Shown here: in pieces, positions 1,368 to 13,111 of the stretch
Position numbering within the stretch: the stretch's first letter is position 1
Layout of the letters: each line of letters starts with the position of its first letter
NCBI GenBank assembly: GCA_040289575.1
Contig: PSLL01000038.1
Coordinates: 5,508 to 21,644 of the forward strand
DNA from: Candidatus Dadabacteria bacterium
Lineage (GTDB): Bacteria > Desulfobacterota_D > UBA1144 > Nemesobacterales > CSP1-2
Direction of reading: 5' to 3'
Length of the DNA: 16,137 bases
Position numbers and translations under genes: made by a program
The notes under the pieces: generated by a model
The model's database searches: none
The model's input: only the letters and a program-made list of their open reading frames with translations
What the model was told of the DNA's origin: nothing

Positions 1368-4037
1368 ATGGGTGCTAAAAATATTGAAAGGATTCTTAAT
1401 CCGAAATCTATTGTTCTAGTCGGTGTAAGTGAGAGAGAGGAAAGTGTTGGCTATCGCCTCTTTAGAAATCTTATAAGCGGAGGGTTTCGAGGAAAAATCT
1501 ATGGTGTAAATCCAAATGTTAGCCAACTCTTCGAGCAAAGGATATACAAGTCCGTAAGTGAAATAGAAGGGGAAATAGACCTTGCTGTAATTGCCGTACC
1601 TATAGAAATGGTTCCCTCTATTATAAGGCAGTGCACAGAAAAAGAGTTAGGGGGCGCAATTGTTATTTCCGACGGCAGAAAGGGGACAGAAAAGGCAGGT
1701 CATGAAGAGAAAATCATTCGTGAGGCGAGGCGTATTGGAATTAGGATAATTGGTCCAAACAGTCTCGGTGTTGTTATTCCACATCTTGGAATAAATGCGA
1801 GTTTCACTGCTTCTCCGGTACCGCCTCAAGGGAATATGGCTTTTATCTCACAGAGTGGAGCACTCTGCATCGCCATTATGGATTGGGCTTGTAGGGAAAA
1901 TGTTGGATTTAGTCATGTGGTTTCAATAGGAGACATGGCCGATGTGGACTTCGGAGATTTAATCAATCTCCTAGGCGACGATAGTAACGTAAGAAGTATA
2001 CTCCTCTATGTAGAGTCGATTACAAATGTTAAAAAATTTGTAGGAGCCGCAAGAAGCGTCTCTCGCGTAAAGCCCATTATTGCACTAAAATCTGGAAAAA
2101 CTGATGCGGGTATTAAGTCTGCGGCCTTTCATACGGAGGCTCTAATCACAGAGGATGCTATATATAGCACTATCTTTAAGCGCGCAGGGATTGTAAGGGT
2201 AGATACTATAAGGGAACTCTTTAATACCGCAGAATCGCTCTCTAAACAGCCCCGTCCTCTGAAACCAAACCTTGCAGTTATAACAAACGCAGATGGCACT
2301 GGTACTATGACAGCAGATGTCCTTTCAGTCAGGTGGGAATCCAAACTCGTGGAACTGAGTGAAAGAACTGTTAAGGAAATAGAGAGTATCCTTCCCCACT
2401 ATACAAATAAACGAAATCCGATCTGTATGCTTGGCGATGCGCCCCCTGAGAAGTATGCAAAGACCCTCGAGACATGTCTTGCGGCTGAAGAGGTAGGCGG
2501 AGTTATTATAATTTTTACCCCTCAGTCAGTGGCACATCCTTCAGACATAGCAAGGGCAATTTCAAAGATTGCACAAAAATCAAATACAAAGCCGGTCTTT
2601 GCCGTTTGGATGGGCGGAAAGTTAGTTGAAGAAGCTATAGGTATTTTAAATGAGGCAGGGATTCCTACCTTTGGGACCCCCGAAGAAGCAATAAATGCCT
2701 TCATGCATATGTATTCATACACATATAACCTCAGGCTTCTCCAAGAGACTCCAAAGCTTATTGAGGAAAGGTTTGAAACAAAGAGGGCAGAATCCATTAT
2801 ACAGAGTTTTCTTAGGGAAAAAGAGAGCGAGATTCTCTCAGAGCTCGACTCAAAAGCCATAATCGCAAGCTACGATATTCCAGTGAATCATACAGAGGTC
2901 GCTACCACGCCCTCAGAGGCCTCACAAGTGGCAAAGGAACTGGGTTTCCCCGTGGTTTTAAAAATCCATCCGCCTGATGTAACAGACAGGTCTAATTCTG
3001 GTACTGTGGCATTTGACCTACACTCTGAGTCGGAAGTCTCTGATGCCTTTAATAGAATCGTCCCAAATGTAAAACGTCTAAAGCCCGATGCGGATATTGT
3101 CGGTGTTACAGTCCAGCCTATGATTACGGAAAAAGGGTTCGAACTCATACTGGGTGCCAAGAAAGACCCGACTTTTGGTCCAATAATAGTTTTTGGAGCC
3201 GGAGGAGAAATGACGGAGTTTATAAAGGATGTGGCAATGGCAATTCCCCCACTTAACTCTACTTTAGCTCTAAGATTCATGGAGAAGACTCGGATTTTTA
3301 ATCTCCTTTCAAATGGGTTCCGTAATATTCCACGCGCAAACATAGATGCCCTTATAAGAATGATTGTGAACTTTTCAGAACTCATCTCGGATTTTCCTGA
3401 GATTACAGAGATTGATATAAACCCCCTCTATGTAAGGGGAGAGCATATACTCGTTCTCGATGCCCGCATAAAAGTTGAAAGAACAGAAGAAAAAACCCCG
3501 TACCACCTCATAATTGCCCCTTATCCGAGTCAATATGAAAGTTATCATACGCTAAAAGACGGCACCGTTATACTTCTTAGACCCATAAGACCGGAAGACG
3601 AGCCGCTCATACTTGAACTTTTTAATACGTTTTCAAAAGAAACAATAGTCCATAGATTTTTTCACGTCATAAAGGTTACAACACATGAACAGCTTGTACG
3701 CTATACGCAGATTGATTACGAGCGCGAGATTGCAATTATTGCTGTGGGTCAGCCTCCGGGACGTGAGAGAATTTTTGGGATCATACAGTTGATATTTGAG
3801 CCGGAGGAGGAAAAAGCCGAATTTGCCATAGTGGTAGGTGACCCGTGGCAGGGAAGAGGACTGGGATCGAAACTAATGGACGTATGCCTATCCGTTGCAA
3901 AACAAAGAGGAGTTAAGCTTCTTTGGGGTGAGATTATTCCTGAGAACATACCCATGATTAATCTCTCTAAGAAGATGGGATTTAACATTAAAAAGAGAGA
4001 GGCCTCACTTTACGCTGAGTTAAAATTGGATGCATAG
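1368..4037 (+). CDS. Pat/YfiQ(PatZ)-type protein lysine acetyltransferase: NDP-forming acyl-CoA synthetase alpha/beta-like domains fused to a C-terminal GNAT
   Basis: N-terminal CoA-binding (LNPKSIVLVGVS, IIGPNSLG, FISQSGA, SIGDMADVDF), ATP-grasp-like (GFPVVLKI, VTVQPM, DPTFGP, EIDINPL) and GNAT (LRPIRPEDE, AEFAIVV, WQGRGLG, N..MINL..KMGF) motifs. Confidence 0.9.
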   Translation: MGAKNIERILNPKSIVLVGVSEREESVGYRLFRNLISGGFRGKIYGVNPNVSQLFEQRIYKSVSEIEGEIDLAVIAVPIEMVPSIIRQCTEKELGGAIVISDGRKGTEKAGHEEKIIREARRIGIRIIGPNSLGVVIPHLGINASFTASPVPPQGNMAFISQSGALCIAIMDWACRENVGFSHVVSIGDMADVDFGDLINLLGDDSNVRSILLYVESITNVKKFVGAARSVSRVKPIIALKSGKTDAGIKSAAFHTEALITEDAIYSTIFKRAGIVRVDTIRELFNTAESLSKQPRPLKPNLAVITNADGTGTMTADVLSVRWESKLVELSERTVKEIESILPHYTNKRNPICMLGDAPPEKYAKTLETCLAAEEVGGVIIIFTPQSVAHPSDIARAISKIAQKSNTKPVFAVWMGGKLVEEAIGILNEAGIPTFGTPEEAINAFMHMYSYTYNLRLLQETPKLIEERFETKRAESIIQSFLREKESEILSELDSKAIIASYDIPVNHTEVATTPSEASQVAKELGFPVVLKIHPPDVTDRSNSGTVAFDLHSESEVSDAFNRIVPNVKRLKPDADIVGVTVQPMITEKGFELILGAKKDPTFGPIIVFGAGGEMTEFIKDVAMAIPPLNSTLALRFMEKTRIFNLLSNGFRNIPRANIDALIRMIVNFSELISDFPEITEIDINPLYVRGEHILVLDARIKVERTEEKTPYHLIIAPYPSQYESYHTLKDGTVILLRPIRPEDEPLILELFNTFSKETIVHRFFHVIKVTTHEQLVRYTQIDYEREIAIIAVGQPPGRERIFGIIQLIFEPEEEKAEFAIVVGDPWQGRGLGSKLMDVCLSVAKQRGVKLLWGEIIPENIPMINLSKKMGFNIKKREASLYAELKLDA

Positions 4038-4156
4038 GGAATCAGACAAGCTTCTTTAAAAAATATAATGAATCTCGGTAGATTTGCTTTCAACATTCCC
4101 AACTCTGGAAAGTAATAAAATTGAGATACGGAAATCAGTCATTGAACATACTGAAA

Positions 4157-4903
4157 CTAGATGGTTTTCTTTAAGCAGAGGAAAGCCGCAAAGTTATAAT
4201 ATTGAAAGAATGTATCAACTATTTCAAAACCATTTCGATTAAACGTTTCTATATTCTCATCAATACGATAGGGGATGAGCACATCCTCAAGAGTCTCCCT
4301 CTTTCGCATTATTTCCAATTCATTATAACTATTACGTCTCTTAAAATCATAGTAGAAGTCAATAAAAAAAACGATTCATGCGAGAGTCATTTGTGAGCAC
4401 CTTCTCTGCCACCGCCAAAGCACCCCCTTCAACGAGGGCATTATAAATCCATCTAATTAGGCCATCTCTTCGTAAGGGACGAATAAATTGCAATGTTCAA
4501 CACATAGTAACAAAGCTTGCGTTATCAAGCTGTATCCTAGAGAGATCTCCGCTGAGGTTTGCATATCGAACCTCAATACGATTCTCTAACCCTTCCTCCT
4601 TTATCTTCCCATACGCCCGCTCTAGCATAGGTGGTGAGTTATCATACCCTATAAAATGCCCCGGTTGTTAGATCACTCGACAAAGGTTAATTAATGCGGG
4701 GTGGCTGTAGAGCATCCCAGATCATAGACGTTAGTTCCCGGAATAAAAAATCTCTTTGCGATCTCCTTGAACATGTCCTGTTGTTCAAGGTAAAACGGCA
4801 CACTGCGAATGATCATGTCATCGAATACCTCGGCAACTTCTGCGCTAAATTCAAAGTCTCCTATTCGAGTTGAGTTTTTCAAAAATAGTTCGTCTTTTTT
4901 CAT
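4157..4903 (-). pseudogene. cmoA: carboxy-S-adenosyl-L-methionine synthase CmoA-like pseudogene (full length, about 248 codons)
   Basis: N-term DFEFSAEVAEVFDDMIIRSVPFY...VYDLGCST. Manual translation continues GYDNSPPML, C*TLQFI, ALVEGGAL..AEK and YYDFKRRNSYNELEIMRKRETLEDVLIPY...GF..VDTFFQYYNFAAFLCLKKTI* (stop 4157-4159). Lesions: frameshift near 4695-4701, TAA 4668-4670, TGA 4497-4499, extra base in A8 run 4364-4371. Confidence 0.88.
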
Positions 4904-4972
4904 TCTACAGCCCCTAATGGCACAGAATTTGGGATTTATGTAACGTATTCACTAAAAGGAATCTGTTCATTC

Positions 4973-5791
4973 TTAATATCTTCGCATTCTATCGTCGTAG
5001 TGTGATAAGAAATCACCGCTTATTGGAATCAATTTTCCACCAGATACCTCACGATGTTTTGTGAACTCAAAAACTTCTAACCCAGTGGCTTCCAAAATTT
5101 GAATAATTTCTCTTATCGTATAGCCAAGTAAATCATCATGCAACTCGCAGAATAAATGGGAAACTTTATTTTTAAGTGTATTGAGCATTCCGGCAAGCAC
5201 TTTTCCTTTCGCACCGTGAACATCAATCTTAATAATATCAGGCTGGATATTCTCTCTTTTACACAGTTGATCAAATGTGATTACCTGTACGTCACCATTA
5301 CCCACTTCATGAAGGACTCTTTCATCCCATCCTTCCATATTTGCCTGACCCTCTTTATCAGACAGCGCTAAATTAAATGTTCGAATGTTCTCTTTAAGAC
5401 CATTAATCTGAATATTTTTCAAAAGGCGGATATAATACTTCTTATGCGGTTCTATTGATATTACCTGTCCTCTGGAACCTATTAGCTTGCCAGCGTATAT
5501 TGTGAAATAACCATAATGAGCACCAATGTCCACAAAAGTAGGGAAATCATAATCTTTGAAGAGTGTCTTTAGCTGAAGGGTAAGAGCCGGTTCATAAATC
5601 TTACCTTGTGAAATATGGGTATAATAATCAAATGTCCTATCGTCTATCATACTTATCTTCGTCCCATAAATATTGGTTTCAAAATAAATTCCCGGCTTAA
5701 ATTTATTCAATAAAGGAATCTTTCTAATATACATCCAAGGGTCTAATACAAATAAAAGATAAAGTGCTCCCCTTTTAATCCATCTTATCAT
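4973..5791 (-). CDS. FkbM-family SAM-dependent methyltransferase (possibly decaying)
   Basis: YEP, FVDIGAHYGYF, IEP..Y..L..N..IN, NLALSD, IKIDVHGA and CELH motifs. Confidence 0.85.
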   Translation of the reverse strand: MIRWIKRGALYLLFVLDPWMYIRKIPLLNKFKPGIYFETNIYGTKISMIDDRTFDYYTHISQGKIYEPALTLQLKTLFKDYDFPTFVDIGAHYGYFTIYAGKLIGSRGQVISIEPHKKYYIRLLKNIQINGLKENIRTFNLALSDKEGQANMEGWDERVLHEVGNGDVQVITFDQLCKRENIQPDIIKIDVHGAKGKVLAGMLNTLKNKVSHLFCELHDDLLGYTIREIIQILEATGLEVFEFTKHREVSGGKLIPISGDFLSHYDDRMRRY

Positions 5792-10414: not shown

Positions 10415-11617
10415 ATGGCATCACTGAGTCCTGAAAAACAGATTGAGATTATTAAAAGGGGAACAGCAGAGATAATCTCCGAAGAAGAACTCATTGAAAA
10501 ACTCAAGAAATCCGTAGAGGCAGAAAAACCCCTCAGAATCAAAGCCGGATTCGACCCGACCGCACCCGACCTCCATCTCGGACACTGCGTGCTCCTTAAA
10601 AAGCTTAGGGACTTTCAGGAGCTGGGACATACGGTTATCTTCCTCATTGGAGATTTTACAGCTATGATAGGAGACCCTTCGGGAAGGTCGGAGACCAGAC
10701 CGCCACTTAACAGGGAAGATGTCATCAAAAACGCCAAAACCTATGAAAGGCAGGTCTTTAAGATACTGAGGAAGGACAGAACCGAGGTTGTCTTCAACTC
10801 CGCATGGCTTGGGAAAATGAGCGCGGAAGAGGTACTGAGGCTTGCCGCGCTCCAGAACGTAGCTAGGATGCTTGAGCGGGATGACTTCCATAAACGTTAT
10901 ACCTCCGGCACTCCTATTACAATAATGGAATTCCTCTACCCACTCATTCAGGCATATGATTCGGTCAATATCAGAGCCGATGTTGAGTTTGGAGGGACAG
11001 ACCAGAGATTCAATATCCTCCTTGGCCGCGACATTCAGAGGTATTTTAAACAGGAACCCCAGGTGGCAATCCTCGTCCCAATCCTTGAGGGTATAGACGG
11101 CGTTCAGAAGATGTCTAAATCGCTCCGAAACTATATAGCAATTGAAGACCCTCCTGAGGAGATTTACGGTAAGGTTATGTCCATACCGGATGCCATTATG
11201 TGGAAGTACTATGAGCTTCTTAGCCGCAGGCCTTGGGAAGAAATCCAAAGAATAAAAGATAAATGGCACCCAATGGACGCCAAGAAGGCCCTGGCTTTTG
11301 AGATTGTCTCATGGTTTCATGGGCAGGATCAGGCAGAAGAGGCTCAAAGGGATTTTGAGATAAAGTTCTCCAAGAGGCAGTTTCCGGAGGATGCAAGGGA
11401 AGTAACTCTGGAGGGAAAAGAAACAACCATTCTAGAGCTGGTTCTGCTTTCATCTGAGAGGATCAAAAGCCGTGGTGAAGCAAAGAGGCTCATAGAGCAG
11501 GGTGGAGTAAGCATAGATGGGCAGAAGACTGCCGATCCCAAGGCGCTTGTACCATACAAAAAACCCCTTAAGGTAAAGATTGGAAAGAGAGAATTTATTA
11601 AGGTGAGATTTATTTAG
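10415..11617 (+). CDS. tyrS: tyrosine--tRNA ligase
   Basis: [13 protein letters not shown] (HIGH-like), [24 protein letters not shown] and C-terminal S4 domain ([17 protein letters not shown]). Confidence 0.97.
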
Positions 11618-11622
11618 TCCCG

Positions 11623-11960
11623 GAGGCGAGTGAACCTGTAAGCCGAATTCTGTCTGGGGCGATCATTCATCTAGGACATCCATCTCTGGATGCCTCATGC
11701 GACCCACCCGGAAGCCTCAGGCGGGCAACCTTTATCTAGCTTCCCTTTTCCATGCCACAGGATGTCGCCATCCTGTGCGGTAGTCTCTTACACTGCCTTT
11801 TCACCCTTGCCTGTTTTTTATAAAAAACATAGGCGGTCTATTTTCTGTGGCACTTTCCGTTGCCTCACGACACCTGGGTGTTACCCAGCGCTCTGCCCTC
11901 TGGAGTTCAGACTTTCCTCCCCTCTTTCAAAAAGGGGCGATCGCCTAGTCCACTCGCCTC
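11623..11960 (-). ncRNA. rnpB: RNase P RNA, bacterial type A, with an apparent internal deletion
   Basis: P1 GAGGCGAGTGGAC/GTTCACTCGCCTC; P2 GGCGATC/GATCGCC; GAGGAAAGTC; ACAGAAAATAGACCGCC; AAGGGTGAAA; P14, P16-P18; ACAGAATTCGGCTTA. The segment normally between P11 and P16 is absent. Confidence 0.95.
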
Positions 11961-12420
11961 AAGTATTGTATTTATCTATTGCTTCGTTTGCAAGCCTGTC
12001 TGCATCCCTATTTAATTCTCTGGGAATGTAATGAACCTTTACCTGTTCAAATTCTGATATTAGTTCTTTAGCCCTTTTGTAGAGAACCGCGATCTTGGGA
12101 TCACGGACGCGCCAGTTTCCATTTATCTGATTGGCAAGAAGGGATGAATCTGTATAAATCTTAAGATGATTTTTTTTAAGTTCTTTTGCAGATTGGAGCG
12201 CAGTTATTAAAGCCTCATATTCAGCCTCATTGTTTGTGGCAATGCCAATGTCTCTCCTTATTTCACGAATGCTTCCATCCACATCCCTCATCAAAACCCC
12301 TACCCCCGATCTGCCCGGGTTCCCTCTTGAAGCACCATCTATGTGGATTTCAATGTGTGATTTCGCACTTTCTAAAGATAATTTAAGCTGTTTGAGCCTC
12401 GTTTTCGGTTGTTTCTTCAC
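11959..12420 (-). CDS. rnhA: ribonuclease HI (DGASRGNPG type)
   Basis: Catalytic motifs IDGASRGNPG, TNNEAEY, TDS, NRDADRLAN; GTG start overlapping the upstream gene (exact start uncertain). Confidence 0.92.
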   Translation of the reverse strand: MKKQPKTRLKQLKLSLESAKSHIEIHIDGASRGNPGRSGVGVLMRDVDGSIREIRRDIGIATNNEAEYEALITALQSAKELKKNHLKIYTDSSLLANQINGNWRVRDPKIAVLYKRAKELISEFEQVKVHYIPRELNRDADRLANEAIDKYNT

Positions 12421-13111
12421 AGTATAGAATTCTATGACAGTTTGGGCATTGAATCATCCTTGAATTTGTTAGAACCTCGTTGAAGAGTTGAGGCGGAATG
12501 TTCATATTACAGCCCGTGCATATTTCGTTTCTTGCCGGTGCAAGCGCAAAGCCATTTCTCATTCTAATTCTCTCATACATTGAGAGAATCTCGGGATTCA
12601 CGACTGAAGTTACCCTTTTCTTCTCTTGCTTTTTAGTCTCATACACGTTTCTTAGCTCACTTATTTTCCGATTATAGCTGTTTATTATCTGCCCATACTC
12701 CTTTTCCTTTTCAGCAAGTTCATTCTCCTTTTCCTTAAGCAGTGCCTCGAGACCTTCAACCGCTTCCATCTCTTTTAAAATCTCTTCTTCTATCTCGGCG
12801 GTTAGCTTTTTAGCCTCAGCAACCTCTTTTTGAAGAGCCTCGTATTCTTTATATGTTTTTATCTCAAAAAGCTTTGCCTCAACCCTTTTTATCTTGTCCT
12901 TATTCTCGGCGAGATTTATCTCCTTTTCCATCTTCCTCTTTTTTCCTGCGTTGAGTTCCTCTTTCGTTTTAGATATGGACTCTTTAATCCCTTTGAGTTC
13001 CTCCTCGTATCGCGATATTTCTCGCGGGTATTTTTCTAGGCTGCCTTCAAGCTCTTCTAGCTCTAAATCGAGCTGCTGAAGTGTTTCGAGAACCGCAATC
13101 TGGCTTCTCAT
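12383..13111 (-). CDS. coiled-coil plus C4-type zinc-ribbon protein (HP0958/CT398-like)
   Basis: LQQLDLEL start, long coiled coil, CTGC...CPNCHRIL. Start moved from 13132 to 13111 because AAGGAGG lies just upstream of this ATG. Confidence 0.9.
   Translation of the reverse strand: MRSQIAVLETLQQLDLELEELEGSLEKYPREISRYEEELKGIKESISKTKEELNAGKKRKMEKEINLAENKDKIKRVEAKLFEIKTYKEYEALQKEVAEAKKLTAEIEEEILKEMEAVEGLEALLKEKENELAEKEKEYGQIINSYNRKISELRNVYETKKQEKKRVTSVVNPEILSMYERIRMRNGFALAPARNEICTGCNMNIPPQLFNEVLTNSRMIQCPNCHRILYCEETTENEAQTA

Follow-up and report, generated by a model that had tools for sequence, protein, structure and literature searches.

The window, by which we mean the whole stretch of DNA analysed here (16,137 nt of a Candidatus Dadabacteria genome), carries on its minus strand a gene for the RNA component of RNase P, rnpB. 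The covariance model of bacterial class-A RNase P RNA (RF00010) matches this gene over model positions 1-367 with 229.3 bits (E 8.3e-74), and the gathering score of 100 bits is exceeded over the full model. A covariance search of the genome (3.06 Mb in 126 scaffolds, 95.35% complete) yields this rnpB and no other. An RNase H-like open reading frame (ORF; PF13456/PF00075) lies upstream on the same strand, with its stop codon ending 2 nt before rnpB, and the tyrosyl-tRNA synthetase gene (tyrS) is convergent with rnpB and ends 5 nt before its 3' end. A 113-aa ORF runs antisense to rnpB; it is almost certainly a chance frame, which gene callers could mis-annotate. The features of the locus are summarized in Table 1.

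In the RF00010 alignment, helices P1-P4, P8, P9, P11-P14 and P18 are clean, and P16-P18 and the conserved GGU of L15 are also present. This agrees with the first-pass annotation of this DNA, which had described the RNA as cleanly paired outside one core segment. The loop GCCC of the P16/P17 arm can presumably pair with GGGC of J5/7 (P6), a reading for which we assume the usual RNase P architecture. Both strands of the P4 pseudoknot (5' AGUC..., 3' ...GGCU) are found in the gene. One pair of P4 varies, being C-G in two genomes of the same family (G003 and G004), U-A in the two congeners (G001 and G002), and U-G in the window and in contigs from three other samples (X1-X3, described below). We take this pair to lie at window position 11909 and a partner near 11646, a register that we assume, the Rfam structure line being without P4. 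Judged from the aligned letters, the U-G pair would be the wobble intermediate of a compensatory change. A compensatory P4 had been put forward as a trait of this gene; the trait is present, but it is lineage-wide (5/5 aligned sequences) and not special to this gene.

Table 1. Features of the rnpB locus in the window, and HARP-type genes of relatives
Feature	Position	Strand	Basis or remark
rnpB, bacterial type-A RNase P RNA	11623..11956	minus	334 nt as assembled; RF00010 match
Junction of the 24-nt gap	11745..11746	minus	alignment and script, placement ambiguous by 1 nt; about 17,252 on scaffold C86
P5 5' strand CUCC, partner missing	11902..11905	minus	RF00010 alignment against the paired state in G001
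P7 5' strand GAGCG, partner missing	11889..11893	minus	all five pairs non-standard in the window, paired in G001
P10 5' strand GG, partner missing	11857..11858	minus	pairs with CC of the block in G001
P15 3' strand GGUC after GGGU of L15, partner missing	11701..11704	minus	pairs with GACC of the block in G001
P16/P17 arm	11710..11745	minus	intact, begins right after the junction; sequence and homology to P16/P17 of G001
RNase H-like ORF	11959..12420	minus	PF13456/PF00075
tyrS	10415..11617		convergent with rnpB
113-aa ORF antisense to rnpB	11690..12031	plus	almost certainly a chance frame
HARP-type PIN_5 carriers (G003, G004, G005, G008, G010, G011)	e.g. L032:5966-6616, L033:1383-2066, L034:5880-6554		

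A core segment absent from the assembled gene

The first-pass annotation had claimed that a conserved core segment is missing from the gene at 11740..11757, with some 20-30 nt lost at a run of four T. The window rnpB was aligned with MAFFT to the two same-genus genes (G001 and G002) and to two same-family genes (G003 and G004). Exactly 24 nt of the relatives are absent from the window gene between GGAAA and AGGGAAGC, as determined from the alignment with a script, and the junction falls inside the interval originally pointed out. The missing block in G001 is ACCCCGCTTGGAGAAAGACCAAAT, and that of G002 differs by one C/T. Apart from the gap, the lengths differ by 5 nt in the variable P12 loop and by 1 nt in the P3 loop. 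The junction offers only 1 nt of microhomology, and a slippage deletion between direct repeats was rejected on this ground.

The gap removes the 3' strands of P10, P7 and P5, the joining region J5/15 and the 5' strand of P15. Helices P5, P7, P10 and P15 and J5/15 join the catalytic and specificity domains of the RNA and contact the substrate. In the RF00010 alignment, the window gene leaves the model mostly empty from the P10 3' strand to past the P15 5' strand (about model positions 212-250); P5, P7, P10 and P15 are marked as unpaired, and the letters from 11779 to 11712 have low posterior probabilities. In the G001 gene, the block aligns at high posterior probability to the closing strands of P10, P7 and P5, to J5/15, to the opening strand of P15 and to AAAUA, with zero non-standard pairs across this stretch. 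The partner strands that the window gene retains are identical to those of G001. It had been noted earlier that such partners remain while their complements are gone, and all four of them (P5, P7, P10 and P15) can now be located (Table 1). It had also been allowed that a covariance-model fold might recover P5, P7 and P15 from the letters that are left; the model recovered none of P5, P7, P10 and P15.

The gene was compared with rnpB of 30 relatives from 8 families of one order, giving 31 genomes with the window's own. rnpB is found in 31/31, and all 30 relatives keep a full-length match. The two same-genus genes measure 362 and 361 nt and score 314.8 and 305 bits, against 334 nt and 229.3 bits for the window gene, which is thus about 85 bits below its congener G001 under RF00010. 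The window gene has the second-lowest score of the 31. The scores of 29 of the 30 relatives range from 275.9 to 323.9 bits, and the lowest score (186.2 bits) belongs to G025, a genome that is 74% complete. Selection on the lost structure can be seen in P7, where G003 has GAGTG with CACTT in place of GAGCG with CGCTY elsewhere; this compensatory double change indicates that P7 is under selection in same-family genes.

These comparisons bear on the possibility that the deletion is real and that the 334-nt RNA still works with RnpA, as a naturally minimised type-A core. Helices P1-P4, P6, P8, P9, P11-P14 and P16-P18 are still cleanly paired, and visual inspection of the sequence yields a possible 3-bp replacement for P5 (UCC/GGA). 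However, the covariance model finds none of the four affected helices, the score falls well below that of the congener, full-length matches persist throughout the relatives (30/30, of which 29 are above 275 bits), and P7 covaries in the family. We know of no natural type-A RNA that lacks these strands. A minimised but active core is barely credible on this evidence, and the truncated 334-nt RNA would be inactive.

Search for a substitute RNase P

RNase P is essential for tRNA 5' maturation (PMC9945441), and the first-pass annotation had proposed three ways in which a cell with a broken rnpB might manage, namely a protein-only enzyme of the HARP/Aq_880 type, a second rnpB, or a two-piece RNA completed in trans. 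The genome lends support to none of them. Its rnpA is intact, with a PF00825 match of 101.8 bits in an open 124-aa frame without stops (G000:C29:29474-29788, G000 being the window's genome). Two profiles for HARP/PIN_5 (PF08745 and TIGR03875) gave 0 matches in the window's genome at E <= 0.001, and each profile matched 4/14 control genomes. The HARP proteins of three relatives found no match in this genome by tblastn at E <= 1e-10, and the same holds for the Pab1020-type RNA ligase, a constant neighbour of HARP, for which tblastn gave no match. The PRORP profile (PF16953) gave 0 matches in the window's genome, and the same profile matched 0/14 control genomes, which makes its zero here uninformative. 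A second rnpB was not found in the 95.35% complete assembly.

For a fragment that could act in trans, the 24-nt block was searched for elsewhere in the 3.06-Mb genome, and no copy is present at up to 5/24 mismatches. Three matches appear at up to 6/24 mismatches, all with exactly 6, which by our own arithmetic is about the chance expectation. A fragmented RNase P RNA is known from Thermodesulfatator indicus, which functions after the removal of about 70 nt (PMC9945441). In that species a peripheral P12 expansion is excised after transcription, whereas the present gene lacks core strands at the DNA level, and the genome contains no second piece.

HARP is, however, within reach of this lineage. 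Six of 14 same-family genomes combine a full rnpB with a full-length HARP-type PIN_5 gene (165-175 bits, 220-235 aa in an open frame), and this combination is a "dual RNase P" state. The other 7 families, with 16 genomes, gave no strong HARP matches. In 3/3 loci examined, HARP is adjoined by a Pab1020-type RNA ligase of about 362 aa. The same-family relatives thus resemble bacteria known to have both the ribonucleoprotein RNase P and HARP (PMC9945441); the phylum list in the Introduction of that paper does not include Dadabacteria. There are also Aquificaceae that have lost both rnpA and rnpB (PMC9945441). Unlike these dual or HARP-based systems, the window's genome and its two congeners are all without HARP (0/3 genomes of this genus), and rnpA is intact in the window's genome. 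The genes that flank HARP in G004, G008 and G003 lie on different scaffolds of the window's genome or have no match there; since this synteny is not conserved, it adds nothing to the absence of a match. Because the genome is 95.35% complete, the absence of HARP falls short of proof.

A second explanation for the gap can now be weighed, in which a real, fixed deletion is compensated by a substitute that processes tRNA 5' ends, be it HARP or a second rnpB in the unassembled 5% or so of the genome, or strands supplied in trans. The incompleteness of the assembly and the occurrence of HARP-type genes beside rnpB in the family leave room for it, and in at least one bacterium with both enzymes HARP works in vivo (PMC9945441). 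It is nevertheless very unlikely, given that neither HARP nor its ligase neighbour is matched in this genome, that the genus is without HARP, that no orphan fragment exists at up to 5/24 mismatches, and that near-identical populations keep the full gene (see below). An intact rnpA and an otherwise unchanged rnpB are also unlike a gene that has been replaced. It is extremely unlikely, more narrowly, that the source strain is viable with the deleted rnpB as its only copy, its tRNA 5' maturation being carried out by an unassembled or unrecognised enzyme such as a HARP acquired from same-family relatives. The case is not a transition to protein-only RNase P. Were the deletion real and fixed, it would offer a rare view of a bacterium in the act of losing a universal RNA enzyme, and a viable source strain would be a bacterium caught abandoning RNA-based RNase P with rnpA and the rest of rnpB still untouched; the evidence points the other way.

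The site in other samples and the origin of the gap

Public sequencing runs provide a view of the same site in other populations. Sixteen runs were listed by their share of sampled words of window 11000-12600, and no share is near 1.0. Four runs from two studies (X1-X4) hold 40-94% of the words, and X5-X16, among them the only RNA run (X12), hold at most 6%. Independently built Logan contigs of X1-X4 were aligned to this 1601-base stretch. A single contig spans the site in 3/4 runs, with lengths of 10,023 nt (X1), 18,298 nt (X2) and 2,259 nt (X3) and depths of 25.7, 17.9 and 4.6, respectively, and the X1 and X2 contigs cover the whole stretch. Each of the three carries 24 extra letters behind 11745 (plus strand), and the reverse complement of these letters is the G001 block, shifted by one ambiguous base; P5, P7, P10, P15 and J5/15 are accordingly present in these contigs as in G001. 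The match of the X4 contig (depth 3.8) ends at 11746, and the 22 loose letters that follow agree with the beginning of the same block. In none of the four runs (0/4) does a contig bridge the site in the deleted form. A pattern search of the JGI metagenome contig collection for the deleted or the intact junction gave 0 matches, in a collection from which the records of the genome itself or of very near genomes may be omitted. The gap occurs in this assembly alone, and the block is present in near-identical populations.

Outside the gap, the rnpB of the window and that of the X1-X3 contigs agree letter for letter. Two substitutions only separate the window from these populations, A>G at 11590 and at 12268, and they are the same in all four runs. 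Both are silent third-codon changes, the former in codon 392 of tyrS (Arg, AGA/AGG) and the latter in codon 51 of the RNase H-like ORF (Ile, ATT/ATC). General sequence noise was rejected as a cause, the two substitutions being silent and at third positions and the 11 main ORFs listed in the window being unbroken. Since the two differences set the window apart from all four runs, the strain or sample behind the assembly is genuinely different, though very close. Such a strain or sample, which may be none of X1-X4, could carry a real private deletion.

This leads to a third explanation, in which the deletion is a real but fresh, non-functional allele, from a subpopulation or a very recent mutant in the source sample whose path the assembler followed, and not from a lasting lineage. 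The two silent substitutions are in keeping with a distinct strain, and the site shows no N and no contig end and lies 4,392 nt from the scaffold end. The loss had been described as recent, and because the remaining 334 nt match the X1-X3 contigs without a difference, any loss must indeed be recent, which fits a new mutant as well. On the other side, given that RNase P is essential and that the searches revealed no backup, such cells should not persist long enough to dominate an assembly. The deleted form is seen in none of the four other runs, the junction has only 1 nt of microhomology, and the JGI collection gives no independent sighting. A fresh null allele is a possible source of the gap, though a doubtful one.

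The state of the assembly points to another origin. The window's genome contains 9,234 N in 224 runs; 60 of these runs are exactly 10 N long, and other common lengths range from 11 to 48. One 10-N gap (scaffold C86:5498-5507) ends directly before the first base of the window. This is a scaffolded draft in which many small joins were left unresolved, and a loss of 24 nt falls in the size class of these gaps. It is not error-ridden in general, because the 11 main ORFs of the window are unbroken. Systematic loss in structured RNAs was rejected as well, the tmRNA (204.7 bits) and SRP RNA (62.1 bits) of this genome scoring like those of its congeners. The site itself appears to be a difficult place for metagenome assemblers, since the X4 contig breaks inside the block and contigs of other organisms align at high depth to conserved rnpB stretches at 11785-11925. 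Local assembly errors that no read supports recur in metagenome-assembled genomes (Chen et al. 2020, Genome Res, PMC7111523). The present case resembles them in that a short consensus stretch of a scaffolded draft with small gaps differs from near-identical populations. Those errors are without read support, whereas here the gap is judged from the contigs of other samples.

We therefore infer that the gap is an artefact, a local error of assembly or scaffolding and not a feature of a working gene, and give this reading a probability of about 0.6. The argument draws on the block being present in the X1-X3 contigs and the deleted form occurring in 0/4 runs, on an essential gene (PMC9945441) for which no substitute was found, on the lack of decay elsewhere (an open rnpA, an otherwise identical rnpB, a normal tmRNA and SRP RNA), on a draft whose N gaps are of the same size class, and on the precedent of documented errors (PMC7111523). 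The junction, with 1 nt of microhomology, does not look like a replication-slippage deletion; by the same measure a k-mer-graph misjoin is not self-evident either. Graph-based short-read assemblers seldom drop 24 nt cleanly from the interior of a contig unless reads support it, and this counts against an artefact, as do the absence of N at the site and the two silent differences shared by all four runs. The first-pass annotation had named an assembly error as a serious alternative, and this is largely borne out by contigs of about 99.9% identical DNA, three of which (X1-X3) span the site with the block while that of X4 enters it.

Under an assembly error, two contig ends would have been joined without the short stretch between them, leaving the 24-nt gap at 11745/11746. 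The gene of the organism would then most likely be an ordinary type-A rnpB, whose RNA of about 358 nt would act with RnpA in removing the 5' leaders of pre-tRNAs. The window gene is like other class-A RNase P RNAs with RnpA in its full-length RF00010 match, its helices, the GGU of L15 and the presence of rnpA elsewhere in the genome; it is unlike them in being without 24 nt as assembled, and the same gene in other samples has these nucleotides. The RNase P of this organism is an ordinary RNA-plus-RnpA enzyme whether the gap is an artefact or a fresh null allele. An RNase P that has been replaced, or one that still works in its shortened form, is improbable even when the two are taken together. 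What was observed is probably no new biology, but the result of faulty assembly or of a single defective copy. The evidence gives the species a normal rnpB and confines the gap to one draft assembly. The case serves as a warning nonetheless, in that the genome representing the species has an essential gene with at least one lesion, which is absent from near-identical populations.

Two further observations concern the same assembly. A second tmRNA match is present at G000:C57:1127-1455 (plus strand; 134 bits, 329 nt) in addition to the main one at C88:54944-55301, and the four relatives searched have one tmRNA each. Scaffold C57 measures 5.9 kb and has 51.9% G+C against 44.2% for the genome, and it is therefore probably a contaminant contig in the bin. 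Within the window, the roughly 930 bases at 4038-4972 contain one ORF of at least 70 aa only (4691-4903, minus strand). They separate an acetyl-CoA-synthetase-like/GNAT fusion gene (1368-4037) from an FkbM-type methyltransferase gene (4973-5791), and may represent either non-coding DNA or the remains of a gene.
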